Of a DNA stretch of 64,000 bases, positions 4,668-59,131 are shown one piece after another. The DNA is from Parcubacteria group bacterium (lineage in GTDB: Bacteria; Patescibacteriota; Minisyncoccia; Phycocordibacterales; Zambryskibacteraceae). The position numbers and the translations under genes are program-made. Positions within the stretch are counted from its first letter, which is position 1. Each line of letters opens with the position of its first letter. Location of the stretch: NCBI GenBank assembly GCA_028286565.1, contig JAQBRH010000004.1, forward strand, positions 33,951-97,950, given 5' to 3'. Below the pieces are notes generated by a model that made no database searches, was not told the DNA's origin, and was given only the letters and a program-made list of their open reading frames with translations.

Positions 4668-4715
4668 ATTAAAAAAACTCCGCCTCTCGAGATATATCGA
4701 GGCGGAGCATTGCGT
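4668..4715 (-). terminator. Rho-independent terminator downstream of 4724..5662
   Basis: CTCCGCCTC...GAGGCGGAG 9-bp stem followed (minus strand) by TTTTTTT. Confidence 0.55.
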
Positions 4716-6358: not shown

Positions 6359-6926
6359 AGTATTTGGAGACGAGGACGTATCCTCCGATGCCGAACACGA
6401 CCGCGAGGAGAGCGAGGAGCGAGGCTGTGCTTAGGATGCTGTCGATCTGGCTTAGATATTTGCCGAACACAAACCCGATGACGATAAGGACAAAGGTCTT
6501 TGGGACGGTGCCGATGAGGCAATAGAGCACGAACTCCCGAAGCGGCATCCCCGCCACTCCGGCCGCCACTTGGATCCAGCCTCCGACCCCGTGGAAAAAT
6601 TTGCTGATAAATACTGACTTCTTCGGATGTTTTTTAAAATGATTCTCTACCTTTTCAAGCTTGGCCTCGTCGATCCGGAGAAGCCTCAGCCATCGCCCGC
6701 CCCGACCGTGCCGAACGAGATACCCGACATAATAGTGCAGAACATCCCCGATCGTGTCGGCGGCGACGATCAAGACATACGCCGAGAGCCCGTACAAATA
6801 TCCGACGGATATGAGGAAGCCGGAGATGATGGTGACGATCGGCCCTTCGAGCACCGCAATGGGAAACAGCACCCAGTATCGATAGGTCTCAAGGAGCGAG
6901 AGGATGTAGTCGAGGCTGAGATGCAT
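6336..6926 (-). CDS. DedA/SNARE-associated family membrane protein
   Basis: VLEGPIVTIISGFL and KFFHGVGGW motifs. Start re-placed at ATG 6926 (MHLSLDY) instead of the upstream TTG/GTG of the listed ORF. Confidence 0.75.
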   Translation of the reverse strand: MHLSLDYILSLLETYRYWVLFPIAVLEGPIVTIISGFLISVGYLYGLSAYVLIVAADTIGDVLHYYVGYLVRHGRGGRWLRLLRIDEAKLEKVENHFKKHPKKSVFISKFFHGVGGWIQVAAGVAGMPLREFVLYCLIGTVPKTFVLIVIGFVFGKYLSQIDSILSTASLLALLAVVFGIGGYVLVSKYFEQESYE

Positions 6927-6927: not shown

Positions 6928-8055
6928 TTAGGCAAGGGTATCTTTCGTGAGCGGGGGTAGCTCCGTGACCGGCACCACATTGAAAAGAAGCCGGCCGATG
7001 ATCTGGCCTCGAGAGGTTTCCACATTTACTCTCCACCTCCCGGATTCAAGACCGTACCTGTTCGAGTATGTCCTAAATCCTCCTTCTCTGCCTCCGATCA
7101 CCGGGAGGTCGATGCGGGCTTTGGTCTCCCATGTCTTTGATGCCTCATTATAATGCTGCCATTCGTGGACAATGCCGATGTCGAGCTTGGAAGGAGAGAA
7201 CACCGCGCTGTATGCATAGACCGAGTCATTCGGGAGAAGGTGAACATCGTCATAGATCTTGAAAAATCCTTTCCAACCGTACTCCTCGTACGTCACTTCA
7301 TAATTCGCTCCGTTTCGGAGAAGCGTATGGTACACCCCTCCGCCTTTTAGAGCGAGCGGCAAGGGAGGAATGAGATTGGTGAAATACATGATATTCACCG
7401 CGGCGAAGATCCCGAGCACGATCCCGACCAGGAACTTTCGTTCTTTCCTATAATCGACCGGGCTAACTTGCTTTAGGACAAAGAAGAATACTCCCATGAT
7501 AAGGAGGCTGATAAGCCCGCTTCCGACAAAGACTGTTGCTCCGATCCGATGAAAGAGGATGGGAACGGAGAAGATGGCGAAAGAGAAAAGCGAGAGGAAG
7601 AAAAGGGCGACCTGGAAGGCCAAACGTTCGTAGTGGCGCTTCAGCCGCTCGTTCGCGAGAAAGGCGAGGGCGAGAATGAGAAGAAAGGGCCAAGTGGCCG
7701 AAAGCGTGGCGCTTCGGAAATAAAAGACGATGAAGGTCGAGAGGAGGCCTCCGAAGAAGAATTGGAGGATGTTCACGAGCCAAAAGTGAGTGGCGGGCAT
7801 CTCTTCTCCCTCTTCCTTTTTGTCTTCGTCTATATTGAGGAGGATGATGGCCACCGCGACGACGAGCAGGTGAAATCCCACCCAGACATTCTCCCAAAGC
7901 GCATCAACGCGGCGGAGCGTCAGGGCGTCGAAGACGAATCCGCCGATAAGGGAGATCGAAGAGAAGGGACGTTCATAGCGTCTATAGAGGCGCTCGATCG
8001 GGGCAAATAATGCCTTAAAGACTCGCATATGGCCATTATATGCTAGACTCCACAC
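6928..8055 (-). CDS. Hypothetical polytopic membrane protein with C-terminal soluble domain (DUF2914-like)
   Basis: About 6 TM helices followed by a ~150-aa domain (GGGVYHTLLRNGANYEVTYEEYGWKGFF...). Confidence 0.5.
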   Translation of the reverse strand: MWSLAYNGHMRVFKALFAPIERLYRRYERPFSSISLIGGFVFDALTLRRVDALWENVWVGFHLLVVAVAIILLNIDEDKKEEGEEMPATHFWLVNILQFFFGGLLSTFIVFYFRSATLSATWPFLLILALAFLANERLKRHYERLAFQVALFFLSLFSFAIFSVPILFHRIGATVFVGSGLISLLIMGVFFFVLKQVSPVDYRKERKFLVGIVLGIFAAVNIMYFTNLIPPLPLALKGGGVYHTLLRNGANYEVTYEEYGWKGFFKIYDDVHLLPNDSVYAYSAVFSPSKLDIGIVHEWQHYNEASKTWETKARIDLPVIGGREGGFRTYSNRYGLESGRWRVNVETSRGQIIGRLLFNVVPVTELPPLTKDTLA

Positions 8056-19252: not shown

Positions 19253-20002
19253 TCAAGCGATGAGCTTGCGAATGGTGTCTTTGGTGTCGGAAAGGCCGGG
19301 CTTTTCCTCAGAGGCATAAGGGATGCCAGTGGGGATAACCGATGCGTCATTCCCCCCGGGGAAGAGCGCATCGCCCACAAAGAGAACCTCCTCTTTTGAA
19401 AGCTCGAGATGCTTCATAAGTTCATGGAGGCCAAAGGCCTTGTCTATCCCCTGCCTCGTCACGTCGATCGACGTCGTCCCCCCGATGCTGAGGGCAAAGT
19501 TCGGAAGCTCCCGCTGCAGCACGACCACGAGCGCGCTCCGCTTATGGTGATCCGGATCCCACGAATACTTGAGCTCGTTCGGTGCGTCGCTTCCGAGGGC
19601 CGAGAATGTTATCTGAGTCCCCCTATCCTCGATCTGTACGCCGTAGATCCTTTCGGGCTGAACAAATCCGGTTTCTCTGAAAGCGAGGCCGAAGGCCTCC
19701 ATGATCTTCTGCTTTTCATCTTCACTGAGGGCATATGAGTATACTTCCTTCCACCCTCCTTTATATTCATAGAGCTGGGCCCCCATGGTGGGAAGGAGGT
19801 AGAGATAGCGAAGCTCGTCTTCCGAGGCTCCGAGGGGGTCAATGATGCTTTTTTTAAATTGTTCAAAGGTTCCGCCGGAGATCACCGCCACTCTTTTTTT
19901 GTCGAGAAGCGTGCGAAGGAGCGCCGCCATCTCCGCATCGAGAGGAGACTTGCTCTCGGTGAGCGTCTGGTCTATATCGAACGCGACGAGTTTTGGGGTC
20001 AT
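19253..20002 (-). CDS. Phosphomannomutase, eukaryotic-type (HAD-IIB, PMM family)
   Basis: LVAFDIDQTLT HAD motif I, VISGGTFEQFKK, C-terminal FVGDALFPGGNDASV closely matching the PMM FVGDKTMPGGND signature. Confidence 0.65.
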   Translation of the reverse strand: MTPKLVAFDIDQTLTESKSPLDAEMAALLRTLLDKKRVAVISGGTFEQFKKSIIDPLGASEDELRYLYLLPTMGAQLYEYKGGWKEVYSYALSEDEKQKIMEAFGLAFRETGFVQPERIYGVQIEDRGTQITFSALGSDAPNELKYSWDPDHHKRSALVVVLQRELPNFALSIGGTTSIDVTRQGIDKAFGLHELMKHLELSKEEVLFVGDALFPGGNDASVIPTGIPYASEEKPGLSDTKDTIRKLIA

Positions 20003-20400
20003 TATAGTGTGTTACCCGAGAAAGAGGACGGTTCGGCCGTCCGGCAGTTCTTGTAGTCCTGATCCATAGAATTATCGCGCATGATGATCGCCTCATTGCC
20101 CTTGTTCCAAAAGACAAGCGACTCGTCCGCATTCGCATAGCGCGCCCCGGAAGCGGAGATCGCTTGGGGAAGATAGAGAGTTTTCTGTCCGCCGAATTCC
20201 AGATGGACCGAGCGCGGATAAAACTCCGCAAAGATCTCCCGGCTGTCGCATGTAAACGTCGCGGTGGAGAGAGGAGTACCCAGGATAAACACCGTTTGGA
20301 ACTTTCGGCCGAGCTGAAATCCTACGAGCAATACGGCCACAAAAAGGATAATGGCCATGGCCTGAGAGAGCGGAGTTACCCTGTTCCAGACGATCTTCAT
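20002..20400 (-). CDS. MliC-family (membrane-bound lysozyme inhibitor of C-type lysozyme)-like protein
   Basis: LPQAISASGARY and FWNKGNEAI motifs typical of the MliC family. N-terminal anchor. Start codon overlaps the PMM stop. Confidence 0.55.
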   Translation of the reverse strand: MKIVWNRVTPLSQAMAIILFVAVLLVGFQLGRKFQTVFILGTPLSTATFTCDSREIFAEFYPRSVHLEFGGQKTLYLPQAISASGARYANADESLVFWNKGNEAIIMRDNSMDQDYKNCRTAEPSSFSGNTL

Positions 20401-20402
20401 AC

Positions 20403-20657
20403 CTATAGAATATCACGAGTTCCCCCGACGAATTCGAGCTTCTGGCCCCGGGTCCATCCCTTGATCTCCGCCTCGCGCTTGGAGGCTGAGCTTCTGTTCG
20501 GGTGTTTTTCGGTGTAGAGCAATTTCTTCACTCCTTTCGATCTCGTATAATGGCCGCCCTTCCCGCCTCGGTGTTCCTTGACCCTTCTTTCCACATCGGT
20601 CGTGATGCCCGTGTACAGCGTCCCGTTTTTACATTCTAAAATATAGACAACATACAT
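20403..20657 (-). CDS. GIY-YIG nuclease family protein (UPF0213-like)
   Basis: MYVVYILECKNGTLYTGITTDVERRVKEH...GWTRGQK; start re-placed at ATG 20657. Its 3' end contains the promoter-half of the array repeat. Confidence 0.7.
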   Translation of the reverse strand: MYVVYILECKNGTLYTGITTDVERRVKEHRGGKGGHYTRSKGVKKLLYTEKHPNRSSASKREAEIKGWTRGQKLEFVGGTRDIL

Positions 20658-20697
20658 GTGCTTTTTTGCAACATGACGCAGGACTCGCATAATCTTG

Positions 20698-20995: not shown

Positions 20996-21253
20996 TTAGC
21001 CGGTAGCCAGCAAGATCCAGAGGCAGGCGAAGGCCGCCACGACTAGAATGCCCGCCGCAATCCGATAATTGGGCCTTGCGATCCTAGCGGTTACGAATGT
21101 GTAGGTAAGCCCGAGGAGGACAAAGAACACCCAGGCGAAGATAAAATCTCCCGGACCCCAATTCCATCCGCTCACGTACATGTTCCCAAAAAACGGGATC
21201 AGTAAAGCAGCCGTTGCCCAACGTACGATATTGATAATAGTTCTCTTCTGCAT
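20996..21253 (-). CDS. Hypothetical small membrane protein
   Basis: Three hydrophobic helices. Preceded by repeat R1 including the extended -10 module. Confidence 0.45.
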   Translation of the reverse strand: MQKRTIINIVRWATAALLIPFFGNMYVSGWNWGPGDFIFAWVFFVLLGLTYTFVTARIARPNYRIAAGILVVAAFACLWILLATG

Positions 21254-21260
21254 ATGTTTA

Positions 21261-21304
21261 GGATATCACGAGCCGGTCCAGTGGGCGACGTTGGAACTTT
21301 TATT
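21261..21304. repeat. Array repeat R1 (promoter-half plus conserved core)
   Basis: ggatatcacgagccggtccagtgggcgacgttggaacttttatt. Confidence 0.8.
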
Positions 21305-21342
21305 AAAATAGCCGGCCCTTGAGAGGTCGGCTTCTACAAATA

Positions 21343-21603
21343 CTAGGTACGAGTAGCAAGATTCGTGAGCGCACTGTCGACTCGCTCGAAGAAGCCGGTG
21401 TCTGACTTGCCGGCCAACCTTCGGAGGTCGGCATTCCTTTCGGCGATCGCATGAGCAGCCTCTGCCGGCATCTGGCTTTCCATCAGGATGGCCAGCATGC
21501 CCATCACTTCCCATTTAGTCGTGTATTCGGATTCGACCAGTTGCATATGAGCCTTGTACAAACGCTCTCCGACAACTTCATGAAAAGGACGGGCGCCGAC
21601 CAT
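21343..21603 (-). CDS. Hypothetical protein
   Basis: Start re-placed at ATG 21603 (RBS GAGGTG 5 nt upstream). The listed ORF uses an upstream TTG. Confidence 0.4.
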   Translation of the reverse strand: MVGARPFHEVVGERLYKAHMQLVESEYTTKWEVMGMLAILMESQMPAEAAHAIAERNADLRRLAGKSDTGFFERVDSALTNLATRT

Positions 21604-21680
21604 GATCCACCTCGGTAGTTTGTGAGCGTTCAATTCCTCTGATCAACAGAGTATCATAAATTTATGATAAGTCAATCTTA

Positions 21681-21709
21681 TTGGGTTCTATGGGGCGACG
21701 TTAAACCCT
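21681..21709. repeat. Array repeat R2 (degenerate copy)
   Basis: ttgggttctatggggcgacgttaaaccct aligns to the CTGGCCCTGTGGnACGAAGTTGGAACC core. Confidence 0.5.
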
Positions 21710-21965
21710 AGCTCAAACCAAAGTAGAAAGCGGAAGCTACTACGATCTGAGAGAAGATCGCCAACAACAGTTTCTGAAGGCCCTTCTGTGAAGGGCCGAA
21801 TACATATACCCCAAAAGATACGGCATACAGGATCATGGCCATCACTACAACTATGAGCAAATTCGGACCCTCAGGATCATTGAAGAGCGAGAACATCGTC
21901 CTAGAACATGCAAGGGATGTTATGCCCAGGATGAGCAGCGAGGTCTTTTTTGAATTGAAATTCAT
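21708..21965 (-). CDS. Hypothetical small membrane protein
   Basis: 85 aa, three hydrophobic helices. Confidence 0.4.
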   Translation of the reverse strand: MNFNSKKTSLLILGITSLACSRTMFSLFNDPEGPNLLIVVVMAMILYAVSFGVYVFGPSQKGLQKLLLAIFSQIVVASAFYFGLS

Positions 21966-21979
21966 ATGTGTAAGTATAC

Positions 21980-22025
21980 TAGAAGATCACCGGCTACCCT
22001 GTGGCTCGTACTGAAATTGGCCTTA
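21980..22025. repeat. Array repeat R3 (degenerate copy)
   Basis: agaagatcaccggctaccctgtggctcgtactgaaattggccttat. Confidence 0.5.
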
Positions 22026-22062
22026 TTTGTATATTGCCCTGAAGCGCAGTAAAATTGTGCAC

Positions 22063-22536
22063 ATGATACCAAAAAATACAATTTGTCTCTGGTTCGATAA
22101 GGATGCGGAGGAAGCGGCGAACTTTTATGCCGCCACCTTCCCCGACAGTAAAGTCACGGCGGTTTTTCATGCGCCCGGCGATTTTCCCGGCGGCAAGAAA
22201 GGTGATGTGCTTACGGTAGAATTTACCGTCTGCGGAATCCCGTGCATCGGGCTGAACGGCGGTCCCGTGTTCAAGCAAAGCGAGGCATTCTCCTTCCAGA
22301 TCGCCACGGATGACCAGGAAGAAACTGATCGCTATTGGAATACGATCGTTCAAAACGGCGGACAAGAGAGTGATTGCGGATGGTGCAAGGATCGCTGGGG
22401 AGTATCATGGCAGATCACGCCGCGTACGCTGATCGAGGCCTTCGCCGTCGGAGGGACAGAAGCAGAGCGCGCTTTTGGCGCGATGATGACAATGAAAAAA
22501 ATCGACGTCGCCGCTATCGACGCAGCCCGGGGTTAA
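22063..22536 (+). CDS. VOC-family protein (PhnB/3-demethylubiquinone methyltransferase-like glyoxalase fold)
   Basis: ICLWFDKDAEEAANFYAATFPDS...GIPCIGLNGGP motif pattern. Start re-placed at ATG 22063. Confidence 0.7.
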   Translation: MIPKNTICLWFDKDAEEAANFYAATFPDSKVTAVFHAPGDFPGGKKGDVLTVEFTVCGIPCIGLNGGPVFKQSEAFSFQIATDDQEETDRYWNTIVQNGGQESDCGWCKDRWGVSWQITPRTLIEAFAVGGTEAERAFGAMMTMKKIDVAAIDAARG

Positions 22537-22545
22537 AATTGGTTG

Positions 22546-22575
22546 CTGGCCCTGTGGGCAAAGTTGGAACTTATG
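22546..22575. repeat. Array repeat R4 (core only, no promoter-half)
   Basis: gctggccctgtgggcaaagttggaacttat; overlaps the DoxX stop codon and faces a convergent gene. Confidence 0.8.
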
Positions 22576-23014
22576 TAGTCCTCAGTCCTAGTTCCCCTCT
22601 TCTGCTTTGTAGCGCCAATATAGCCAGAACCAGAGCATAGACAATATGCTCATCAATTAGAGGATTATTGGCTGGAGGAAACAATGACAGCCACATCAAA
22701 AGCATCATCACGATCCCCGCAACCGCGCCCCACATCACACATCTATTTACCAAGAGAGTTACGCCGACAAACAAAAGACCGAGCATGAACAGCCAATCAA
22801 TGGCCGGCACGCCAGACAGGCTCTTAAACAATGGCACCAAAGGTCCGTGCGTACCAAAGCTTAAAAATCCAGATGTCGGAGAACCTCCTCTTATCCATGC
22901 ATTTTCGCTCTTTGTAGAAAAGCCTAATCCGAACACCTTATCGATAAAAGCCCACAAGAAGATGAATGACATCACAAAACGAAGCTTAAGAAATGCGATT
23001 TTTGATATGTTCAT
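22571..23014 (-). CDS. DoxX-family membrane protein
   Basis: Four TM helices with DoxX-like spacing. Confidence 0.6.
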   Translation of the reverse strand: MNISKIAFLKLRFVMSFIFLWAFIDKVFGLGFSTKSENAWIRGGSPTSGFLSFGTHGPLVPLFKSLSGVPAIDWLFMLGLLFVGVTLLVNRCVMWGAVAGIVMMLLMWLSLFPPANNPLIDEHIVYALVLAILALQSRRGELGLRTT

Positions 23015-23086
23015 TTATACAGTCTACGCCTTTTATCCATTTTTCTATATACTTCACCTAGGCTAGTACATTCACTGGAGGTATGT

Positions 23087-23677
23087 ATGACTGCACAAAT
23101 AAGCCTTACCCAACACGACGCTTCCAAGCTGCCACGCCTGGCTGCCGACCTATGGAGGATCGCGAACGGATATGGCTTTCATCCAGCCAAGGATGGGCGC
23201 TTCGAGAACGAAGCGGCAAGGGCTGACTTTGCCCACCGCCTTGATGATTTTATCTCTCATCATCTGGTACTTAAGCCGGAAGCTCCCTGCACATCTCGCA
23301 CTCTCCGCCATTTCATGGAGATGGAACGCAGACCGGTTCAGAGAAAAGAAGCCCTCGAACTGAAGAAGATAAACGAGCTCACCCTTGCCTGGGCGGCCTG
23401 CCTTCTCCTCAAGGGCTACCGGGGGCTCACCCGAGGGGAAGCGTTGAATACTCTGAAAGTCCTGGCAATTCAACTCCTTGAGAAGTTCGGATATCCGCTC
23501 CAACCCTATCGGGCGATGTTCTGTCCGATCCTAAACGCTTGGGAGAACGAAAAGGATTGGGCGGTGATACTTTCGAACGATACGGGGGTGATACAAGAAA
23601 CGCCTTGTTCATCGACCTTGGTCGTCCTACCTGACGTATGCAAGCAGTGCGTCGAAGAACATACGACCGTTCGATAG
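23087..23677 (+). CDS. Hypothetical protein
   Basis: 196 aa, RBS GGAGG upstream. Opposite orientation to neighbouring array genes. Confidence 0.5.
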   Translation: MTAQISLTQHDASKLPRLAADLWRIANGYGFHPAKDGRFENEAARADFAHRLDDFISHHLVLKPEAPCTSRTLRHFMEMERRPVQRKEALELKKINELTLAWAACLLLKGYRGLTRGEALNTLKVLAIQLLEKFGYPLQPYRAMFCPILNAWENEKDWAVILSNDTGVIQETPCSSTLVVLPDVCKQCVEEHTTVR

Positions 23678-23701
23678 CTCGACGGTCTTTTTATCTATTT
23701 T

Positions 23702-23736
23702 TACGAGCCGGCCCTGTGGTACGAAGTTGGAACTGC
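23702..23736. repeat. Array repeat R5
   Basis: tacgagccggccctgtggtacgaagttggaactgct; abuts the stop of 23736..24137. Confidence 0.8.
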
Positions 23737-24137
23737 TATACCTTAGGCATTTCAGCTATAAATGCAAACAATTCCCAAATATGACCATTAATATCGCGAA
23801 ATGCTTTTCCATACATAAAAGCTTCAGATTCGGGACTATCCTTTGTTACGTCTACAGCACCGGACGTAGTAGCTTTTTCAAAGAAAGCATCTACTTCACT
23901 CTTTGAATCAAACTGTAATGCAATGGTCAGGTTATTATTGATTGCTTCCGGATTACCTCCGACAAAAGTTGCAAATCGCTTGTCCTCCAACAACATAACA
24001 AAAGTATTTTCGTTGATCTTTGCATTAGTGGTATCTTCACTGCTGAATTGTTCATTCTTCACCATTCCTAGCGATGCAAAGAATGTATCAGTGTCAGCAA
24101 CATTTCTAATCGGCAAGTTAATGTATGTATTTTTCAT
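23736..24137 (-). CDS. VOC/glyoxalase-bleomycin-resistance family protein
   Basis: INLPIRNV...FFASLGM and ...HIWELF VOC-type beta-alpha-beta-beta-beta modules. AT-rich coding sequence. Confidence 0.6.
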   Translation of the reverse strand: MKNTYINLPIRNVADTDTFFASLGMVKNEQFSSEDTTNAKINENTFVMLLEDKRFATFVGGNPEAINNNLTIALQFDSKSEVDAFFEKATTSGAVDVTKDSPESEAFMYGKAFRDINGHIWELFAFIAEMPKV

Positions 24138-24163
24138 ATATAAAAGTATATCAAGAAAACCTC

Positions 24164-24197
24164 CAGCTGGTCCTGTGGGACGAAGGTGGAACCATTC
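24164..24197. repeat. Array repeat R6
   Basis: ccagctggtcctgtgggacgaaggtggaaccatt. Confidence 0.8.
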
Positions 24198-24209
24198 TAG
24201 GGCAGGTCC

Positions 24210-24572
24210 CTATTCCTCAGGTTCATCATTGATACCCAGCTTTGATTGAATAGCTTGTCGTATCCACCACGTCGCATAGGTTGAGAATTTATAATCAGCT
24301 TTATAATCATATTTTTCCACGGCTTTAAAAAGGCCCAGGTTACCATTTTGAATAAGATCCAATTGAGAAACATTCTGCTCGTTGTCTTTGTATGCTTCCG
24401 CAATCTTCGCTACTAATCGCAAATTCCCCTTGGCTAAAAGATTCTTTGCTTCATCATCATTATTTTCCTTAATTCTTTTAGCCAGCTTTTTCTCTTCTTC
24501 ACCGGAAATAAGTAGATATGCTGATATCTCATTAAGGTAATCTTCTAATTTTTCCTGTTCAGTTTTTTCCAT
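24210..24572 (-). CDS. Truncated sigma-70-like protein (regions 1.2-2.4 only; possible fragment or decoy)
   Basis: NLRLVAKIAEAY...LDLIQNGNLGLFKAVEKYDYKADYKFSTYATWWIRQAIQ matches RpoD region 2. Only 120 aa; lacks regions 3-4. Confidence 0.6.
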   Translation of the reverse strand: MEKTEQEKLEDYLNEISAYLLISGEEEKKLAKRIKENNDDEAKNLLAKGNLRLVAKIAEAYKDNEQNVSQLDLIQNGNLGLFKAVEKYDYKADYKFSTYATWWIRQAIQSKLGINDEPEE

Positions 24573-24623
24573 GATATGTATCTAAACGTTTATTCACTAG
24601 GATGCTTTCCCTTTAAAATCATA

Positions 24624-24660
24624 AGAGCCAGCCATGTGGGACGATGTTGGAACCTTTTTT
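24624..24660. repeat. Array repeat R7
   Basis: agagccagccatgtgggacgatgttggaacctttttt. Confidence 0.8.
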
Positions 24661-24662
24661 AA

Positions 24663-25193
24663 CTATTCCTGAGGAAAACCATACTTCTCACGTATTTCCC
24701 TAGTGTATTGCTCTATTGGTTCTAATCCAATCTCTGCCCTTCTTTCGTCAACGTGTTTTTCATCTTCTATAGGCTCAGGTCTGAAGTTTCCATCCCTATC
24801 TCTAAATTGAGTTCCGTAAACCTGTAAACCATGCTCACTTACTCGTATTCGATCTTCTAAGTACGCAACATGTTTTCTATCTACCTCCTCGGGCGATTCT
24901 GCTTTCATAAGTTCAAGACACTTTTTTTGAAAATCTTTATCGTGATCTGCGTGTTGAATTAATAGCCATGCATTACGAACACCTATTGCTCCAACTTTAG
25001 ATGTAGTGGGCCATCCGATTTCAACAACAATTTCCTTTAATCTTTCTGTATTTCTTTTATCAATTTCGTTATCCCAATACTCATCATCTACAAGATTCTT
25101 TTCTCGCATATCTTGGTCTACCTTAACCATTGTTTCTAATTCAGAAGCGATCTCTGGATTAAGCATGACTTTAGGAGTTTCTTCATTATTCAT
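24663..25193 (-). CDS. Hypothetical protein
   Basis: 176 aa, acidic. GWPT...NAWLLIQHADHD motif. No family assigned. Confidence 0.5.
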   Translation of the reverse strand: MNNEETPKVMLNPEIASELETMVKVDQDMREKNLVDDEYWDNEIDKRNTERLKEIVVEIGWPTTSKVGAIGVRNAWLLIQHADHDKDFQKKCLELMKAESPEEVDRKHVAYLEDRIRVSEHGLQVYGTQFRDRDGNFRPEPIEDEKHVDERRAEIGLEPIEQYTREIREKYGFPQE

Positions 25194-25200
25194 ATACCTA

Positions 25201-25246
25201 GAATATCACGAGCTGGGCCCTGGGGTACGAAGCTGGAACCTATTTT
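25201..25246. repeat. Array repeat R8 (promoter-half plus core)
   Basis: gaatatcacgagctgggccctggggtacgaagctggaacctatttt. Confidence 0.85.
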
Positions 25247-25827
25247 ACAGCTATAAAGTGAAAAACATGCCAGTGCTTCGTCTCTCCCGCAGCAGTTTTG
25301 CCATCTTTTTCTTCTTCACTGAACTCCGCAATCTTTAGTCCCTGCAGCAATGACTCCGCCTCTTCTTTAGTCTGAAATGTCATATCTCTACCTTCTACAT
25401 TCCACTCATCTCTATCTCCGAAGAATTGTCCGACAAATACACCGCCTGGTTTTAACGACTTAATAATTGATTGAATAACATCATTAAATTTTCCTTTAGA
25501 AGTAAACGGTAAAGAATACTGAGCGTTAATCAGATCATACGCACCTTCTACAAAATCAAAATCTTCAAAAGAACTTATTTCGTATGTGACTTTTTCGGCG
25601 GGAAGTTGCTCGAGCACTTCTCCAGAGACTGGGTTCTTATCGACAGCTGTAACATGCTCAAATCCTACAGACAAAAGATACCTCGTATCATTAAGTGCCC
25701 CTGATCCAAGATCCAATGCTTCATGTTTGTCTTGAACTAATTCGACAGCGTTAACCAAAGAAGGTCTTGGTGGCGTTTCTTTAGTTTGTTCGTAGTATTG
25801 CTCCCAGTTATGTTCACTCATGGGCAT
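25240..25827 (-). CDS. Class I SAM-dependent methyltransferase (TehB-like)
   Basis: LDLGSGALNDTRYLL motif I, VTAVDKNP, LKPGGVF. Confidence 0.7.
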   Translation of the reverse strand: MPMSEHNWEQYYEQTKETPPRPSLVNAVELVQDKHEALDLGSGALNDTRYLLSVGFEHVTAVDKNPVSGEVLEQLPAEKVTYEISSFEDFDFVEGAYDLINAQYSLPFTSKGKFNDVIQSIIKSLKPGGVFVGQFFGDRDEWNVEGRDMTFQTKEEAESLLQGLKIAEFSEEEKDGKTAAGETKHWHVFHFIAVK

Positions 25828-25837
25828 ATGATATCAG

Positions 25838-25878
25838 AATTTCGCTAGCTGGCCCTGGGATGAGGTTGGAACCTTTAT
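25838..25878. repeat. Array repeat R9
   Basis: gaatttcgctagctggccctgggatgaggttggaacctttat. Confidence 0.8.
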
Positions 25879-26399
25879 ACCGTAACAATCTTCAGATCTG
25901 CCGTATCAATTGTGCCTTTATAGAGAATATGAGGAACCAGATGGAATCCCATGGGGATCATGCCTGCTTCAATAGTTTCCTTATAGTATTCAGTGGTTGC
26001 CTCCGGTAGATAGGCATATTTCTCGACTTCATTCGGATCATAGGCCAGATAATCATCTTCTGGAGGAGGAGTCCCCTTTTCGCGTGGGGAGTTTAAATAC
26101 ACCACAGTCTTTTCTAGCTCTAGCTTTTCTGCAGGGATCTCAACATAACTTAAGGCGAAACCTTTTCCCAACTTCCGCATTTCCCTATCAACAATGCTCG
26201 GATTCAATGCACTCAGATGAAGTACGTCGTTCCACAAACAACCCAGCCTCTTTATTCTTCTTTGCAACAAAATTTCACGGCCTTCGTACTTCTTTACATG
26301 TGCCTGATACGCATCGGGGAAAATGTTTTTAAGCGTATTCAAGGGATATAGTACGGTTCCCTGCATTCCTTTGGGAACTATATGATAGACGAATGCCAT
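25875..26399 (-). CDS. Hypothetical protein
   Basis: 174 aa. No repeat between it and the downstream isochorismatase gene, suggesting a two-gene unit. Confidence 0.5.
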   Translation of the reverse strand: MAFVYHIVPKGMQGTVLYPLNTLKNIFPDAYQAHVKKYEGREILLQRRIKRLGCLWNDVLHLSALNPSIVDREMRKLGKGFALSYVEIPAEKLELEKTVVYLNSPREKGTPPPEDDYLAYDPNEVEKYAYLPEATTEYYKETIEAGMIPMGFHLVPHILYKGTIDTADLKIVTV

Positions 26400-26429
26400 A
26401 TGGGAGTAGTGTAACAGAAATTCGTTTAA

Positions 26430-26936
26430 TCAAAACTTGATCAAGAGATCCGCTGTATTTTCATAAAAAGACGTATGGGCCTTAAACCAGGTCTTATTTT
26501 TACGAGACAACCTTCCCTCCTTGTTGCTTACACTAGCTATAAGACTCTCTGCCGTTGAAACTTTATAGCCTCTTTTCATTGCTCCTATTGCTGTATCCTG
26601 AACGCATGCATTGGCATTAACTCCAATAATAATGAGGTTCTTTATCTTTAGGCTACGAAGAATTTTATCCAGATGGGTTTTTGTGAATCCACTATTGCTC
26701 TCCTTAATGATTATTTCTTCCGCGACTTTGCGAATTAATTTTTCTAATATAGGAGTTGTTCTTCCTCTGTCTTTGCCTCCAGCTTTATACTCAAAAACAA
26801 CCACCGGAATATTTTCTTTTATGCATCTACGAAGGATCTTACCTTGCTCTGCAATTAATTTTTCCTTAATATGAGCAGGAAAATTCTTTAGGAAAAAATC
26901 CTGCATATCCATCACAACGACTGCGGCATTCTTCAT
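26430..26936 (-). CDS. Isochorismatase-family cysteine hydrolase
   Basis: VVVMDMQ, conserved Lys, and the GVNANACV catalytic Cys motif. Confidence 0.7.
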   Translation of the reverse strand: MKNAAVVVMDMQDFFLKNFPAHIKEKLIAEQGKILRRCIKENIPVVVFEYKAGGKDRGRTTPILEKLIRKVAEEIIIKESNSGFTKTHLDKILRSLKIKNLIIIGVNANACVQDTAIGAMKRGYKVSTAESLIASVSNKEGRLSRKNKTWFKAHTSFYENTADLLIKF

Positions 26937-26960
26937 ATTTTAAGTATACCAGCACAAGTT

Positions 26961-27000
26961 TCGCTAGCTGGCCCTGTAGTACGATGTTGGAACCTTTGTA
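26961..27000. repeat. Array repeat R10
   Basis: tcgctagctggccctgtagtacgatgttggaacctttgta; followed (minus strand) by TGGTATACT extended -10 and a leaderless ATG. Confidence 0.8.
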
Positions 27001-27042
27001 GAAAAAGAAAAAGACCGCCTGTAAGCGATCTGCTAGTCAGAA

Positions 27043-27450
27043 TCACAGTCCTCCAAAAACATGGAGACTGTCCTTTCCCGAAGAACCTCTTGGATAGTAT
27101 TCCAGCGTGAACTCCACTGAATCTGGCATGCCTTCTGGAAGATGAGCGATCTGGTTTCCACGATACGGGATACCCCGAAAGAAGATGTTTATGAGCGATG
27201 TCAAAGCGTCAGCGATCTCTTCTTTTGAAAATTGGAAACGCTCTGAGTCAGAGATTTCACGCGGATCAGTTCCCCTCTTTGTTTCCTTCCCTATTACCTC
27301 CGCACTTATTTCAACTTCGAGGATTTCGGGTGGTACAAAGGAAGACCGAGCGATCCTGTAAGGAAAAAATACATGCCCAGTTCTCCTTGCGATGAATTCA
27401 GCAATCGCATCACCGAATTGCTGGGCAGCAATTCTTTCGTAATCAGGCAT
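27043..27450 (-). CDS. Hypothetical protein
   Basis: Start re-placed at ATG 27450 (MPDYERIAAQQ). The listed ORF starts at a TTG. Confidence 0.45.
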   Translation of the reverse strand: MPDYERIAAQQFGDAIAEFIARRTGHVFFPYRIARSSFVPPEILEVEISAEVIGKETKRGTDPREISDSERFQFSKEEIADALTSLINIFFRGIPYRGNQIAHLPEGMPDSVEFTLEYYPRGSSGKDSLHVFGGL

Positions 27451-27527
27451 AACACCTTCCAAGGCAAGATGTGGTCTGTGGTAGAACTTATCTGGTAATT
27501 AAAATACTACTTATTACAGTAAAGTCA

Positions 27528-27562
27528 AGTTGCTGGCCCTGTGGCACGAAGTTGGAACTTAT
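27528..27562. repeat. Array repeat R11
   Basis: agttgctggccctgtggcacgaagttggaacttat; followed (minus strand) by TTGACT-N16-TATTTT promoter-like sequence. Confidence 0.8.
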
Positions 27563-27565
27563 ATA

Positions 27566-27590
27566 AAAACCCAGGATTACCTGGGCGTTG
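27566..27590 (-). terminator. Rho-independent terminator at the 3' end of 27577..27792
   Basis: CCCAGG-ATTA-CCTGGG hairpin followed on the minus strand by TTTTTAT; overlaps the stop codon. Confidence 0.5.
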
Positions 27591-27792
27591 TAGAAGGCGC
27601 TTTGTAATTCGGCTGCGCCTCTGGTAGATCAAGCAGTGTTCTAGCCACAAGGGCACACACAAGAGCACAGAGAACAAATGTAACTCTCGTACTCTTTTGC
27701 TTGAATGTTACTCCCTTCATGAAAAGCAGGAGGGCGAGGAGGCCAAGGATCAAAGAAGCGGCAAGCGGGTGTGCAAACATGTGTTTCTCCAA
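27577..27792 (-). CDS. Hypothetical small membrane protein
   Basis: 71 aa, two hydrophobic helices, RBS GGAGA upstream. Confidence 0.4.
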   Translation of the reverse strand: MEKHMFAHPLAASLILGLLALLLFMKGVTFKQKSTRVTFVLCALVCALVARTLLDLPEAQPNYKAPSTTPR

Positions 27793-27864
27793 AAGATGTG
27801 AAGATTCTACTGCCAGGGGTCGTTTCTGAATATAAATTACAACTAAAAAAGTCTTAAGTCAAAT

Positions 27865-27900
27865 CTGCTGGCCCTGTGGTACGAAGTTGGAACTTTTTAA
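27865..27900. repeat. Array repeat R12
   Basis: ctgctggccctgtggtacgaagttggaactttttaa; followed (minus strand) by TTGACT-N17-TAATTT. Confidence 0.8.
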
Positions 27901-28382
27901 AGCTTCCCTCTTAATTCCAAGGCTCTTTCCATTATCCTTTCGCCTCTCTTCCCCCAATCAAAGTATTGCTTATATTCCTTAGGATCAATAAGTTTTATTT
28001 CTTCTATCTCGTTATCTGGATCTTTCACAAAATCACCATAAGGTTCAACTATACAAACACTCCTTGTCTGCCTAATAATTCTCCCCGGCTCATAAACATC
28101 TTGGAAACCTATTAGCGATTGGCTGAGAACTCGCATATTAGTTTCTTCCCTTACCTCCCGGATCACTGCTTCTTCATATGTTTCTCCTGGCTCTATTCCT
28201 CCGCCTGGCGGCATCCAGCCACTTTTTGGGTGATGGACTACTACCATTTTATCTCCATAGAAACAGAAAGCATGAACCCCTTGGAGCAACTTCCCTTCCA
28301 TATCAAATAACGGGTCTGATTCTTTATATATAATTTCAACTTCCTGACCCAATCTGTTTACATGAATAGATTTAATTTCCAT
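27897..28382 (-). CDS. NUDIX hydrolase
   Basis: NUDIX box GGGIEPGETYEEAVIREVREETNM. Confidence 0.75.
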   Translation of the reverse strand: MEIKSIHVNRLGQEVEIIYKESDPLFDMEGKLLQGVHAFCFYGDKMVVVHHPKSGWMPPGGGIEPGETYEEAVIREVREETNMRVLSQSLIGFQDVYEPGRIIRQTRSVCIVEPYGDFVKDPDNEIEEIKLIDPKEYKQYFDWGKRGERIMERALELRGKL

Positions 28383-28390
28383 CAGTTAAG

Positions 28391-28435
28391 ACTACCACGA
28401 GCTCGCCCTGTGGTACGAAGTTGGAACCTTTTTAC
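28391..28435. repeat. Array repeat R13 (promoter-half plus core)
   Basis: actaccacgagctcgccctgtggtacgaagttggaacctttttac. Confidence 0.85.
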
Positions 28436-28516
28436 AACCTTCTATTATTGACAACATCTAGGACATGATTCATATTGAACCCAGAGTACAACCCAACAAC
28501 GAATAGGAGACAAGAC

Positions 28517-28768
28517 ATGTCGAACGAGAAGTATTTCCGAGATCTGGCACCTGGGGAATTGTTTTCCTTCCAGTCGCCCACTTCCGATCCAGTCGTGGAG
28601 CCGGCCTCATACCTCGTCAAACTGAATGAGGATGAGTATCTGATGGAGCGAGGACATGGAACATTGCGCTTCATGAACTTCGAAAAGTCTCGCACTCTAG
28701 TAGTGAGCCACGGCATGGAAGACCAGGCCAATTTCGAACAGATGCTCGCTGCTTGGCCAAGGGAATAA
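28517..28768 (+). CDS. Hypothetical protein (opposite orientation inside the array)
   Basis: RBS AGGAGA 7 nt before ATG 28517. Preferred over the overlapping minus-strand ORF 28432..28791 on composition and RBS. Confidence 0.4.
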   Translation: MSNEKYFRDLAPGELFSFQSPTSDPVVEPASYLVKLNEDEYLMERGHGTLRFMNFEKSRTLVVSHGMEDQANFEQMLAAWPRE

Positions 28769-28782
28769 TCCCCGGCCCCTAC

Positions 28783-28830
28783 TTCCCACACATTCGCTTA
28801 ATTGAAAGGTGTGGGGATTTTCATAACTAA
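28783..28830. terminator. Bidirectional terminator between convergent genes
   Basis: CCCACAC...(19 nt)...GTGTGGG hairpin followed by GATTTTCAT. Confidence 0.45.
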
Positions 28831-28863
28831 AATAATCGAACGCCTGGTACTAAGTTTTAGAAT

Positions 28864-29367
28864 TTAGAGAACACACTTCCTAAGGACATCTGCAGCAATG
28901 CGACAATCTTCAAGCGCATCGTGCGACCCTCTTGGTTTTGCACCAAAAGCTTGAAAAATATCTTCAGAATTCATCCCTCCCTGGTAGCCGGTTTTAAGTA
29001 GATGAGTGTAAGCGATAGGCCAAATATCCAACACATGATAGTCATACTGTTCTTCTCCATTTCTTGAAGCTGTAAGCGTTCTTAAATGCTTCATGTCGAG
29101 CTCAGCCACAAATGAAGCGATGATCACATTGCTTCCGAATCTTTCAAAGAATTCTTGTCCTACTTCTGCTTGAGATGGAGCACCATTAAGCATCTCTTGA
29201 GTGATGCCGGACTTTACACTTGATCTCCCCTGCAGATTTGCGTGTATATAACTCACAAAAGAATCTTTTTCAGCCAGAGTGTCTTTATCTAGGAGAATGG
29301 CACCTATTTGTTTTGGTGCTCTCATTCCTTCAAAATCTATAACCAAAATATCTTTGGGGAATTTCAT
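28864..29367 (-). CDS. DEDDh-type 3'-5' exonuclease domain protein (RNase T/oligoribonuclease-like)
   Basis: VIDFEG N-terminal acidic motif and a C-terminal HDALEDCR motif. Confidence 0.55.
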   Translation of the reverse strand: MKFPKDILVIDFEGMRAPKQIGAILLDKDTLAEKDSFVSYIHANLQGRSSVKSGITQEMLNGAPSQAEVGQEFFERFGSNVIIASFVAELDMKHLRTLTASRNGEEQYDYHVLDIWPIAYTHLLKTGYQGGMNSEDIFQAFGAKPRGSHDALEDCRIAADVLRKCVL

Positions 29368-29370
29368 ATC

Positions 29371-29420
29371 TCTAGAATATCACGAGCTGGCCCTGTGGGA
29401 CGAAGTTGGAACCTTTTTAG
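29371..29420. repeat. Array repeat R14 (promoter-half plus core)
   Basis: tctagaatatcacgagctggccctgtgggacgaagttggaacctttttag; fills the whole 49-nt stop-to-start gap. Confidence 0.85.
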
Positions 29421-29859: not shown

Positions 29860-30074
29860 AAGTTCGAGTCCCTATTGGTTGCTGCCGATCAGGGACTCGC
29901 TCCTTACAGGAACAGGACAGAATTCGTCAGGGACTCGGTCACTCATAAAATTCTCCTGAATTTTTGTGCGACCCCGCCTCGGCCCGCCGGCCTCCGGCTT
30001 TCGAGTCCGCGCGACGCTTCGCATGTGCGAAACTGCGCCTGATCGGCAGCAAAACACGCTGCGCTTTCGTTTTG
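29860..30074. repeat. Mosaic of direct and inverted partial copies of the tRNA-Gln 3' end (T-arm/acceptor)
   Basis: 19-nt direct copy gctgccgatcagggactcg at 29881-29899 (identical to 30075-30093). Inverted T-loop fragments at 29862-29873 and 30003-30012. Inverted copy cctgatcggcagcaaaac at 30038-30055 forms an 18-bp hairpin with the tRNA 3' end. Confidence 0.75.
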
Positions 30075-30145
30075 CTGCCGATCAGGGACTCGAACCCCAA
30101 TTAACCGCTCCAGAGGCGGTCGTCCTACCATTAGACGAATCGGCA
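30075..30145 (-). tRNA. tRNA-Gln (anticodon CTG)
   Basis: Hand-folded cloverleaf: acceptor TGCCGAT/ATCGGCA with U1-A72, D-stem GTCT/GGAC, anticodon stem ACCGC/GCGGT with loop CTCTGGA, T-loop TTCGAGT, discriminator G. Four-nt variable loop. Confidence 0.6.
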
Positions 30146-30208
30146 ATTACACACAACAAACCGGCAATACCGGGAAAGAATAGCTTAAAACAAGCCCTAT
30201 TTCAAGGT

Positions 30209-30664
30209 ATGGATCTCGAGTATACTAAGCGCATGAACTGGGAAAAGAAATTCACAGACTCCATCGGGTCTAAAACATCGGTCGTCTTGCACACGATCTT
30301 TTTCATCATCATGCTTGTCCTCCCCTTCTTCGGAGTGCGGGTCGACACGGTCCTCCTCGTCCTGACCACCCTCGTGTCCTTGGAGGCCATATATCTCGCC
30401 ATTTTTATCCAGATATCAGTGAACCAGAACACCGCGAGCCTCGAAGAGGTCGAAGAGAACATCGACGAGATCCAAGAGGATGTCGACGAGATCCAAGCGA
30501 ACGTCGATGAGATCTCCACGGACATCGACGAGATCCAAGGAGATGTGGACGAGATCCAGGAAGACGTGCGAGAGGACAAGGACGCCGAAGGAGACCTCGA
30601 CCACATCCAAGCTATGCTTGAAAAGCTTCTCGAAGAAGTGAACAGATTAAAGAATCAAAAATAA
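30209..30664 (+). CDS. DUF1003-family membrane protein with C-terminal acidic octad repeats
   Basis: SIGSKTSVVLHTIFFIIM...LVSLEAIYLAIFIQISVNQN DUF1003 core. C-terminal (V/I)DEIQxxV x5 encoded by a 24-nt tandem repeat (30457-30576). Start re-placed at ATG 30209, downstream of the tRNA. Confidence 0.55.
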   Translation: MDLEYTKRMNWEKKFTDSIGSKTSVVLHTIFFIIMLVLPFFGVRVDTVLLVLTTLVSLEAIYLAIFIQISVNQNTASLEEVEENIDEIQEDVDEIQANVDEISTDIDEIQGDVDEIQEDVREDKDAEGDLDHIQAMLEKLLEEVNRLKNQK

Positions 30665-33347: not shown

Positions 33348-33827
33348 TTATTTGACCGTGAGCGTTCCTTTCATACCCATCTGGCGGTGCGTCCCGACGG
33401 AGCAGTAGAATTCGAACGAGCCGGACCTGTCCGCGGTGAAAGTGACTGTGTCGCTTTCTCCTCCGTTGATCCTCTTCGTCGCAGCGGCGAATTCATCGAT
33501 CTTAAAATCATGAAGTCCTCCGGAGTTTTTGAAGATGATAGTGACCTTGTCTCCTTTGTTGACGCTCAGCGCGCTCGGGGCGAAAGCAAAGTTCGATCCG
33601 GTGACGGTGAAGGTCTTTGAAGTTGGAGCTGATACGGGCGCCGGTGTGGCGGAGGTCGAAGTGGAAACGGGCGCCGGGACCGTCCCATCATCTACCATGC
33701 CCGAGTCCGTTCCGTATGATGTGTCCGGAGTGGCGGGCATATCATCCATGGCTTCCTTATCATGGAAGATGAAGTAGCCTCCGATGAGGAGTACAAGGAC
33801 TACAACGAGCGTGATCATTTTATTCAT
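33348..33827 (-). CDS. Cupredoxin (plastocyanin/halocyanin-like blue copper protein) with N-terminal anchor
   Basis: Type-1 copper ligand pattern H...C..GTH..GM (GGLHDF ... EFYCSVGTHRQMGMKG). Confidence 0.7.
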   Translation of the reverse strand: MNKMITLVVVLVLLIGGYFIFHDKEAMDDMPATPDTSYGTDSGMVDDGTVPAPVSTSTSATPAPVSAPTSKTFTVTGSNFAFAPSALSVNKGDKVTIIFKNSGGLHDFKIDEFAAATKRINGGESDTVTFTADRSGSFEFYCSVGTHRQMGMKGTLTVK

Positions 33828-33878: not shown

Positions 33879-34427
33879 CTATCCGAGAGCCAAGGAGCGG
33901 CCGGCGGGATCCGCGAGGAGAAGGTCGTATAACCTTTGGAGAGCTCTCCTATACTGGCTCTTGACCGTATTCAGAGGCTTGTTGAATACATAGCTGATCT
34001 CTTTGAACGTAAGCTCATCCTTATGCCGAAGCAGGAGGAGAACCTGCTCGTTATCCGAAAGTTTCAAAAGAGCGCCGTCGACGATCCCCTGCAGCTCCTG
34101 GCTTTCGGCCAGTTCGAGAGGGGTCGGATCATCGGAGGGAATAGTAGAATCAAAAGGTATCAGTTCCTCGTCGATCATATGATCGAGCCGAGAGAAGGGC
34201 AGAGCTTTTTTCTTCCGCAGAAAGTCCGTCGCGCTGTTGCGCGCGATCGACAGGAGCCATGTTTTGAAATTCTTCGTCCGATCAAAACGATGGAGGTTCG
34301 CCCACGCTTTCATGAACGTTTCCTGTGTCAGGTCCTCCGCTTCATCTTTGTTCCCTACCAGCCTAAACAAGAACCCGCAGATGGACTTCACCAGTTTCTG
34401 ATCAAAGAATAGAATCACGTCCTCCAT
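33879..34427 (-). CDS. RNA polymerase sigma factor, ECF (sigma-70 family group 4)
   Basis: Region 2 (DLTQETFMKAWANLHRFD) and region 4 (ELTFKEISYVFNKPLNTVKSQYRRAL). Confidence 0.8.
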   Translation of the reverse strand: MEDVILFFDQKLVKSICGFLFRLVGNKDEAEDLTQETFMKAWANLHRFDRTKNFKTWLLSIARNSATDFLRKKKALPFSRLDHMIDEELIPFDSTIPSDDPTPLELAESQELQGIVDGALLKLSDNEQVLLLLRHKDELTFKEISYVFNKPLNTVKSQYRRALQRLYDLLLADPAGRSLALG

Positions 34428-57693: not shown

Positions 57694-58068
57694 ATGTCCA
57701 CGAAAATACACGGCTCGATCGTCCGTACGCTCTACGCGAATGCGCACTCCGTCGGAGTCAACGTCTTTATGGATCAGCAATACAAATACGGCTTCGAATT
57801 CGTCATTCGCGAAACCGGCGAGAGGATCCTCCGAACAAAGCCGTTTCTCCTGAGCCAACATGTGACAGCCTGGATAGTGAACGACTTCCTTACACAGGTG
57901 CGGCTCGGCGTAGAAAAGAAGTGCGCCGAACAAGGGATACGCCCTTACACTCACTTCGGAGTCGGCGCCTTCGATGTCCTTGATGAGCTGGCGATCGAAG
58001 GGCTGTACTTCGACGCTGTCCAGCAGCTCGTCCAGGGCGCAAACTCGACTGCTTCGCAGCCCGCCTGA
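57694..58068 (+). CDS. Hypothetical protein
   Basis: In frame with the long listed ORF 57334..58068, but the upstream part has an atypical Pro/Arg/Gly-rich composition. ATG 57694 chosen; start uncertain. Confidence 0.4.
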   Translation: MSTKIHGSIVRTLYANAHSVGVNVFMDQQYKYGFEFVIRETGERILRTKPFLLSQHVTAWIVNDFLTQVRLGVEKKCAEQGIRPYTHFGVGAFDVLDELAIEGLYFDAVQQLVQGANSTASQPA

Positions 58069-58069
58069 T

Positions 58070-58100: not shown

Positions 58101-58143
58101 TATAAAGAAAAAGACCCGAACATTGTGCTCGGGCCTACGGCGG

Positions 58144-59127: not shown

Positions 59128-59131
59128 AAGT

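Follow-up and report, generated by a model that had tools for sequence, protein, structure and literature searches.

What does a sigma factor do in the cell when it consists of domain 2 and nothing else? This question is raised by a short gene in a 64,000-nucleotide stretch of the genome of a Parcubacteria group bacterium (contig JAQBRH010000004.1; the whole stretch that was analyzed is called the window below), whose product of 120 amino acids resembles a sigma-70 factor up to the first residues of region 2.4 and then ends. The smallest unit that can dock on RNA polymerase and melt the −10 element is sigma domain 2 (sigma-2), and in isolation it has been studied mainly through engineered fragments; a conserved natural protein composed only of sigma-2, if true, would show what the module does alone in the cell (competitor, minimal sigma factor and pause factor are possible roles) and would add to the very few regulators of bacteria of the candidate phyla radiation (CPR). 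The open reading frame (ORF) of the 120-residue protein is a gene that is conserved and under selection and that encodes the core-binding and DNA-melting domain alone; it can therefore be classed neither as a pseudogene in decay nor as an ordinary sigma factor:

24210..24572, minus strand: sigma-2 ORF, 120 amino acids; regions 1.2, 2.1, 2.2 and 2.3 and the first residues of region 2.4; GC 0.358

The similarity of the 120-residue protein to sigma factors is far above chance. Pfam Sigma70_r2 (PF04542) matches residues 48–111 with E = 9.6e-15 (profile positions 3–64 of 71), and the score of 54.6 against a cut-off of 24 bits places the protein with the sigma-70 family as far as region 2 is concerned; Sigma70_r1_2 matches residues 9–39 (E = 1.7e-7). 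The NCBIfam models for RpoD, RpoS and RpoH also match (E down to 7e-35 for RpoD), far under their full-length cut-offs; the best score is 121 bits vs 572 for the cut-off of PRK09210, that is, the protein is not called as a primary sigma equivalog. Solved SigA chains in the PDB match residues 9–110 (E = 9e-29 to 3e-26), and CPR RpoD fragments are ~50–60% identical. These matches bear out the alignment to region 2 proposed in the first-pass annotation of this DNA, and the core-binding and −10 melting motifs named there, LDLIQNGNLGLFKAVEKYDY and KFSTYATWWIRQAI, are both found in the translation; its assignment of regions 1.2–2.4 stands for regions 1.2–2.3 but not for region 2.4, of which only the first residues are present. 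The C-terminus is WWIRQAIQSKLGINDEPEE, with the stop codon ~12 residues past WWIRQAI, within region 2.4.

Since the ORF has no possible upstream extension, region 1.1 is missing on the N-terminal side of the protein. On its C-terminal side regions 3 and 4 are absent (no Pfam match for either), and with region 4 the part of the sigma-70 family that recognizes the −35 element and binds the beta flap. To our knowledge, every functional single-chain member of the sigma-70 family combines sigma-2 with sigma-4; lacking sigma-4, the protein is an incomplete sigma factor. The core of a direct repeat (vide infra) begins 17 nt past the stop codon and the next gene has its ATG 72 nt past it, and a tblastn search with three CPR RpoD C-terminal halves found no sigma-3/4 coding sequence in the window or in 13 related loci; the protein does stop short of regions 3 and 4, as first noted, and the frameshifted continuation that could have undone that observation is absent. 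An AlphaFold model calculated from the family alignment has six helices and a mean pLDDT (predicted local distance difference test) of 91.7; its best structural matches in Foldseek are the sigma-2 domains of SigA and RpoS, including Staphylococcus aureus SigA in an open complex (TM-score 0.81, root-mean-square deviation 1.2 Å over 105 alignment columns). The protein is thus confidently predicted to be a well-folded sigma-2 domain.

The truncated form is conserved in relatives. We searched 5.8 billion protein clusters, which returned the identical protein and relatives of 113–139 amino acids at 54–67% identity; at least 13 clusters of 111–139 amino acids (46–78% identity) share the end point, 8–22 residues past WWIRQAI, and are the members of the family considered here (P0001–P0008, P0013, P0018, P0132, P0136 and P0161). 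Their tails are non-canonical, often with KLGIxEE (e.g., QSKLGINEEPEE, ILKLGIEEED, HKKLGIEGED and LRNLGIRDH), unlike the continuation of full-length sigma factors past WWIRQAI, which is TRAIADQARTIRIP (canonical TRAIADQ). Other short matches keep the canonical continuation and were set aside as fragments from contig ends or frameshifts. The encoding contigs were recovered for 11 members of the family; in 11/11 the ORF is complete, and what comes after it is either an unrelated gene or non-coding sequence.

A neighbor-joining tree of regions 1.2–2.3, built with 226 sigma sequences, places the 13 short proteins in a single clade with no other members; because the tail was left out of the tree alignment, it is independent evidence of common descent. 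The insertions and deletions among the members are in frame (four residues inserted between regions 2.2 and 2.3; four residues deleted before region 2.1). In a codon comparison of eight genes, the ratio of non-synonymous to synonymous substitution rates (dN/dS) is 0.08–0.23 in the 7 of 28 pairs with a finite dS (the closest pair, P0008 and P0018, has dN 0.185 and dS 1.02); the pseudogene-like substitution pattern that the first-pass annotation had named as a possible refutation is therefore not seen where it is measurable. The family evolves faster than its canonical counterparts, with a mean identity of 0.61 within the family vs 0.73 among canonical sigma-2 sequences, and it is small: a profile search of 1.84 billion representatives had P0001, P0132, P0136 and P0161 within its best 150 matches. 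From these comparisons the ORF is an intact gene under purifying selection, in a small Parcubacteria family derived from a primary sigma factor.

Two observations made in the course of these searches stand apart. The top profile matches P0121–P0127 contain two or three tandem copies of sigma regions 1.2–2, which may be assembly chimeras or genuine duplications. The close accessions MDB5266577 and MDB5266216 had raised the idea of two paralogues in one genome; this was dropped, with ~40% GC at the P0008 locus vs 54% here, and the two are probably from different genomes.

Which positions the family keeps bears on what the protein may do. The most conserved stretch is region 2.3 (K-F-S-x-Y-A-x-W-W-I-x-x-A), (near-)invariant as it is in full-length sigma factors; region 2.2 is largely (near-)invariant (D-L-I-x-x-G-N-x-G-L-x-x-A), as are L-V-x-x-I-A-x-x-Y of region 2.1 and Y-L-x-E-I and E-x-L-A of region 1.2. 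In what we take to be the Escherichia coli sigma-70 numbering (Q406, E407, W433, W434, Q437, T440 and R441), the 120-residue protein keeps the melting residues of region 2.3 together with Q437, and T440 and R441 are replaced; the positions equivalent to the last two, just past WWIRQAI, are variable in the family. Relative to canonical sigma factors, the SIAK motif of region 2.1 and the G before YKF are among the relaxed positions. The determinants of strand separation and of non-template −10 recognition are kept at least as strictly as those of docking, a pattern that fits a protein working with DNA on RNA polymerase better than an inert decoy.

Sigma factors contact the beta-prime clamp helices mainly through region 2.2 and use regions 1.2 and 2.3 to bind two flipped bases of the non-template strand, −11A and −7T; normal initiation and reading of the −35 element depend on regions 3.2 and 4. 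Our preferred reading, for which we put the probability at roughly 45%, is that the 120-residue protein is an RNA-polymerase-docking module that keeps −10 strand recognition, that is, a minimal sigma-like factor that works independently of a −35 element and is in competition with the housekeeping sigma factor. The protein would dock on the beta-prime clamp helices via its conserved region 2.2, and the retained pockets of regions 1.2 and 2.3 would bind and melt the non-template −10 strand, so the sites of action could be promoters with only a −10 element or −10-like sites; docking would necessarily compete with the housekeeping sigma factor for one site, and ordinary −35/−10 initiation would not be supported without the region 3.2 finger and region 4.

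Several observations weigh against this reading. Key core-binding positions are relaxed: the Q406 equivalent is Q in 7/13 members and the E407 equivalent is E in 8/13, with N at the latter position in the 120-residue protein itself. A sigma-2-only protein without the other core contacts may bind polymerase too weakly to matter, and the protein does not have region 3.0, the part that normally reads extended −10 promoters. Monophyly of the family has weak bootstrap support (85/200), and dS is saturated in most pairs (all but 7 of 28). A consensus scan of the minus strand upstream of the sigma-2 ORF found no sigma-70-type promoter, so the promoter of its own that was at first attributed to the gene is reduced to a weak TAGATA hexamer, seen by eye.

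A pure decoy, an anti-sigma-like competitor that occupies the beta-prime clamp helices, blocks holoenzyme formation and lowers or re-routes transcription with no role on DNA, is rather unlikely. The docking helix of region 2.2 is conserved, the parts needed for normal initiation are all absent and the gene is carried on a mobile cassette, all as expected of a decoy; however, the melting motif of region 2.3 is the most conserved and region 1.2 is kept, neither of which an inert decoy needs, relaxation falls on the docking residues Q406 and E407, and a full-length sigma factor with its several interfaces should out-compete a single-domain competitor. The same retention of region 2 docking and −10 non-template reading, with the initiation-only parts dropped, would suit a trans-acting elongation factor that causes pausing at −10-like non-template sequences via the clamp helices of the elongating polymerase, or that competes with NusG; these two activities suffice for sigma-dependent pausing. 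We consider this reading quite unlikely, although sequence alone cannot separate it from that of a minimal sigma factor.

It is improbable that the protein is one half, sigma-2, of a sigma factor made of two polypeptides, with the sigma-4 half encoded by a gene elsewhere. Bacillus subtilis SigO–RsoA provides the precedent, and a clean domain that is predicted to fold well is what such a half should be; but no sigma-3/4-like ORF is found beside any of the 11 members or in the window, the neighboring genes differ between contexts, and a cassette-borne half would be useless on transfer without its partner. Finally, the ORF might be a decaying pseudogene, as the first-pass annotation had considered, or an accidental rpoD fragment caught in the array. 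It is truncated relative to every characterized sigma factor, is AT-rich and lies in an accessory region with its promoter unconfirmed. Against this stand the same truncation point and related tails in 13 clusters at 46–78% identity, intact frames with in-frame indels, dN/dS of 0.08–0.23, a confident fold prediction and the lack of a region 3–4 remnant downstream; we regard decay as ruled out by the common end point, the tails, the in-frame indels, dN/dS and the clade taken together, and this explanation as a whole as very improbable.

How did the gene come to lie where it does? The sigma-2 gene was gained horizontally as one cassette of an array that is anchored at a tRNA-Gln gene, and the features of this array are as follows:

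30074..30145, minus strand: tRNA-Gln(CTG), which anchors the array
29862..29898, minus strand: array-start junction, with the duplicated tRNA-Gln 3' end GAGTCCCTGATCGGCAGC at 29881–29898, then AACCAATAGGGACTCGAAC
21251..29420, minus strand: array of 12 direct repeats with the core aaaGGTTCCAACnTCGTnCCACAGGGCCAGC, all on the same strand, bounding 12 units of 336–1285 bp
24604..24661, minus strand: upstream direct repeat, 3' end of the DUF6624 cassette; core right after the stop codon of the DUF6624 gene
24573..24603, minus strand: leader from the repeat to the ATG of the sigma-2 gene; weak TAGATA hexamer 6 nt before the ATG, by eye
24146..24200, minus strand: downstream direct repeat, 3' end of the sigma cassette; core GTTCCACCTTCGTCCCACAGGACCAGC 17 nt past the stop codon
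20398..20419, minus strand: partial repeat with the promoter-like 3' module only (CTCGTGATATTCTATAGGTATG), preceding the MliC-like gene 20002–20400; distal end of the array region

The repeat consensus is TAnAAAGGTTCCAACnTCGTACCACAGGGCCAGC, and the start of each repeat is ~20 nt or less from the stop codon of a small ORF on the minus strand. The sigma unit (24146–24603, ~458–461 bp) accordingly has repeat copies of its own on both sides, as first claimed. Most units contain a single gene: an RNase_T exonuclease, a NUDIX protein, an isochorismatase, a methyltransferase, the DUF6624 protein, the sigma fragment, a 133-residue ORF, and DoxX-like and PhnB-like proteins (the last two labels come from translations read by eye and have no Pfam basis). 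GC over 23690–29420 is 0.41, and that of the sigma-2 ORF (0.358) compares with 0.538 for the window minus its two AT-rich islands, in agreement with the initial description of an AT-rich coding sequence. No Shine-Dalgarno sequence is seen by eye in the leader of the sigma-2 gene. A GIY-YIG nuclease-like ORF (by eye; 20403–20690, minus strand) overlaps the partial repeat at 20398–20419 with its last codons.

The repeat core resembles the T-arm and acceptor 3' end of a tRNA. A true tRNA fragment was rejected: neither ARAGORN nor Rfam makes a call, and the T-arm is unpaired by eye. An Rfam search of the window at gathering thresholds gave tRNAs only, so the repeat is not a known RNA family by this search, and folding of eight repeat copies on both strands revealed no shared hairpin (z-scores of −0.8 to +1.6 against shuffled sequences in 7/8, with −2.4 for one plus-strand copy). 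Pfam scans of 40 ORFs of the window, both flanks of the array included, found no recombinase. Together with the sequence that adjoins it downstream, the tRNA-Gln 3' end makes up a perfect inverted repeat of 18 bp (30038–30086), and a similar hairpin of ~26 bp that includes the tRNA 3' end is seen by eye at a tRNA-Ile gene in another locus (L098, ~5150–5215); such hairpins at tRNA 3' ends could be a terminator or a feature of a recombination site.

The repeats are also where promoter-like sequences are found. In about half of the units the module TCGTGATATTCTAGAnATATG directly follows the repeat core (29363–29385, 25190–25212, 21251–21279 and, in the partial repeat, 20398–20419), as it does in other genomes (L002, ~6643–6666 and ~7325–7347; L006, ~2641–2661; L007, ~1129–1152); it suggests an extended −10-like element, TGnTATTCT, 6 nt before the ATG, and leaderless cassette mRNAs. 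Other units have a −35-like box, TTGAC(T/A), after the core (consensus resemblance by eye). Many cassettes begin with TGATATTCT or TGATATACT, which by eye are extended −10-like boxes 6–9 nt before the start codon with no −35 element; it is possible that these are the −10-only targets of the sigma-2 protein.

The array is not peculiar to this genome. The pattern GTTCCAACNTCGTNCCACAGGG occurs at 8 loci in a collection of species-representative genomes, all from Patescibacteria/CPR (Parcubacteria, Saccharibacteria, Giovannonibacteria and Moraniibacteria), and at 5 metagenome loci; one 22-nt core pattern, GTTCCAACnTCGTnCCACAGGG, is exactly common to distant CPR lineages and to different tRNAs (loci L001–L008 and L097–L101). 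At loci with a tRNA gene, the repeat is on the downstream side of that gene (tRNA-Gln in L001, L006 and L008; tRNA-Glu in L003, L004 and L101; tRNA-Ile in L098), and its final bases follow those of the local tRNA 3' end: GGGAGCGC at tRNA-Glu of L003 and L004, GGGACCA at tRNA-Glu of L101 and GGGCGGACCA at tRNA-Ile of L098, where the 25 nt after the tRNA recur exactly after the repeat. This tracking is the signature of site-specific integration at tRNA 3' ends.

Three comparisons support mobility of single cassettes with a recombinase in trans. The orthologous tRNA-Gln locus L001 has the tRNA and the upstream gene in common with the window and none of the cassettes; a homologue of the methyltransferase cassette (25240–25827), 53% identical and with the same repeats on both sides, is found in a second Patescibacteria genome (L007, 558–1127); and the insert in L098 contains two small ORFs only and no integrase. 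The junction sequence of 29862..29898 is also present in L001 and L002. A screen of 28 ORFs from L001–L008 found no recombinase among the 25 families listed of 65. The array looks like an undescribed integron-like system. We also entertain, tentatively and with more doubt than belief, a wider proposal: that Parcubacteria carry a natural sigma-2-only factor that acts in trans at the clamp helices (by −10-only initiation, sigma-type pausing or competition with NusG) and that is spread as a single-gene cassette of an undescribed CPR system that uses a recombinase in trans to place promoter-carrying mini-cassettes at the 3' ends of tRNAs.

Do the homologues share a context? Two are cassettes in arrays of their own, with repeats that belong to the family of the repeat in the window. 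P0008 (L009) is in a cassette array with a degenerate core after it (4680–4701) and a good repeat after the next gene (5336–5381); P0007 (L014, 21–2460) is in an array of 5–6 copies with the variant core GTTCTAAAnTCrTACACCCAGGGACCCAA. The proposal that the gene encodes a functional RNA polymerase-binding protein on a mobile unit is thus upheld for the mobile unit, by the cassette and by the homologues in two other arrays, and for polymerase binding it is made plausible by the conserved residues of regions 2.2 and 2.3. The other homologues have different surroundings: P0132 and P0136 directly follow a PadR gene and a PspC/DUF2807 membrane-protein gene and are convergent with a Y-family polymerase gene, with an S24 peptidase gene nearby; P0006 overlaps a NUDIX gene at that gene's end, and genes for VanY, an S24 peptidase and a Y-family polymerase lie downstream of P0006; and P0004 lies between a membrane-protein gene and a GNAT gene, downstream of tRNA-Ser. 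No neighbor is conserved across all of the contexts, and none of the neighbors has a sigma-4 or helix-turn-helix (HTH) match in Pfam; a linked split-sigma partner is unsupported because a conserved, sigma-4 or HTH neighbor is lacking.

Some details of these contexts are recorded here in their own right. In the P0007 array, one unit has a perfect TTGACA-17-TATAAT promoter and two have TGATATACT boxes. Among the non-array loci (L102, 2485–5050; L103, 4695–7212; L104, 4–1594; L012, 4475–8128), the homologues in three are close to genes for a Y-family polymerase (IMS, DinB) and an S24 (LexA/UmuD-like) peptidase, a proximity that hints at a link to stress or DNA damage. A protein of ~100 amino acids is encoded just upstream of the short-sigma gene in L009 (3446–3751) and in L013 (199–597); the two are 72% identical and on contigs of one sample, and in L009 an extra gene for 172 amino acids separates the ~100-residue protein gene from the short-sigma gene.

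Elsewhere in the window, the only other sigma-domain gene among the ORFs scanned encodes a complete sigma factor of the extracytoplasmic function (ECF) type (33879–34427, minus strand; sigma-2 and sigma-4, 182 amino acids) and adjoins a cupredoxin gene (33348–33827). The second AT-rich island (58000–62800, GC 0.37–0.47) encodes a tetratricopeptide repeat (TPR) protein of 624 amino acids (59132–61006) and a DUF2726 protein (61361–61837) and is free of tRNA genes and of copies of the array repeat. Five or six tandem 21-nt repeats (30423–30612) lie inside a plus-strand ORF for a coiled-coil-like protein (29966–30664), a gene that is conserved beside tRNA-Gln in L001 with 73% nucleotide identity.

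Which known systems come closest? The literature that we searched on CPR integrons and cassette arrays and on truncated sigma factors in Parcubacteria held nothing relevant, which is not proof of absence. The sigma-2 protein is like the primary (group 1/2) sigma factors RpoD, SigA and RpoS in regions 1.2–2.3 and in its sigma-2 fold; unlike them, it lacks region 1.1, most of region 2.4 and all of regions 3.0, 3.2 and 4, and it has a family-specific tail. Its nearest natural precedents are SigO–RsoA and gp55 of phage T4. The gp55 protein is small and region-2-like only; with the beta-prime clamp helices as its docking site, it recognizes a −10-like element in the absence of a −35 element. It is phage-encoded and highly diverged, and it needs gp33 and the sliding clamp. 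In contrast, the sigma-2 family is ~60% identical to cellular sigma-2. A phage origin for the family was considered and rejected: among 80 viral loci kept, none of the 24 ORFs with the region 2.3 motif ends with a tail of the family type, and one stops 5 residues past the motif. The genes of SigO and RsoA are reportedly co-encoded. In this system, which is discussed among the ECF sigma factors, the functions of sigma-2 and those of sigma-4 are on separate small polypeptides (PMC7826278); the 120-residue protein, in contrast, is primary-sigma-like and has no linked partner gene in 11 contexts.

The array resembles the cassettes of integrons (attC/IntI) in its small, mostly single-gene units, mostly in one orientation, with a conserved site 3' of each ORF, and in its accessory-type cargo, with content that differs between related loci. 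It differs in that the repeat has no attC-type imperfect hairpin (inverted R''/R' cores and a GTTRRRY/RYYYAAC pair are not seen by eye) and in that the array is anchored at a tRNA 3' end; a classical integron was rejected on the lack of an attC hairpin and of IntI in the Pfam scans of 40 window ORFs. The tycheposons of Prochlorococcus integrate at tRNA genes and leave partial-tRNA repeats, and in their islands successive integrations push older ones inward (bioRxiv 10.1101/2020.12.28.424599). The array is similarly anchored at a tRNA, and its repeat resembles a tRNA 3' end with last bases that track the local tRNA; as a tRNA-targeting element it thus has the anchor and the partial-tRNA-like repeats, and no element-encoded recombinase was found among the ORFs scanned. 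Tycheposons, in contrast, are several kb long, with their own integrase and often replication genes, whereas the units of the array are 0.3–1.3 kb, mostly single-gene and without a recombinase found in cis. Carriage of the sigma-2 gene by an array of promoter-bearing mini-cassettes that is anchored at a tRNA points to integron-like gene shuffling in CPR bacteria.

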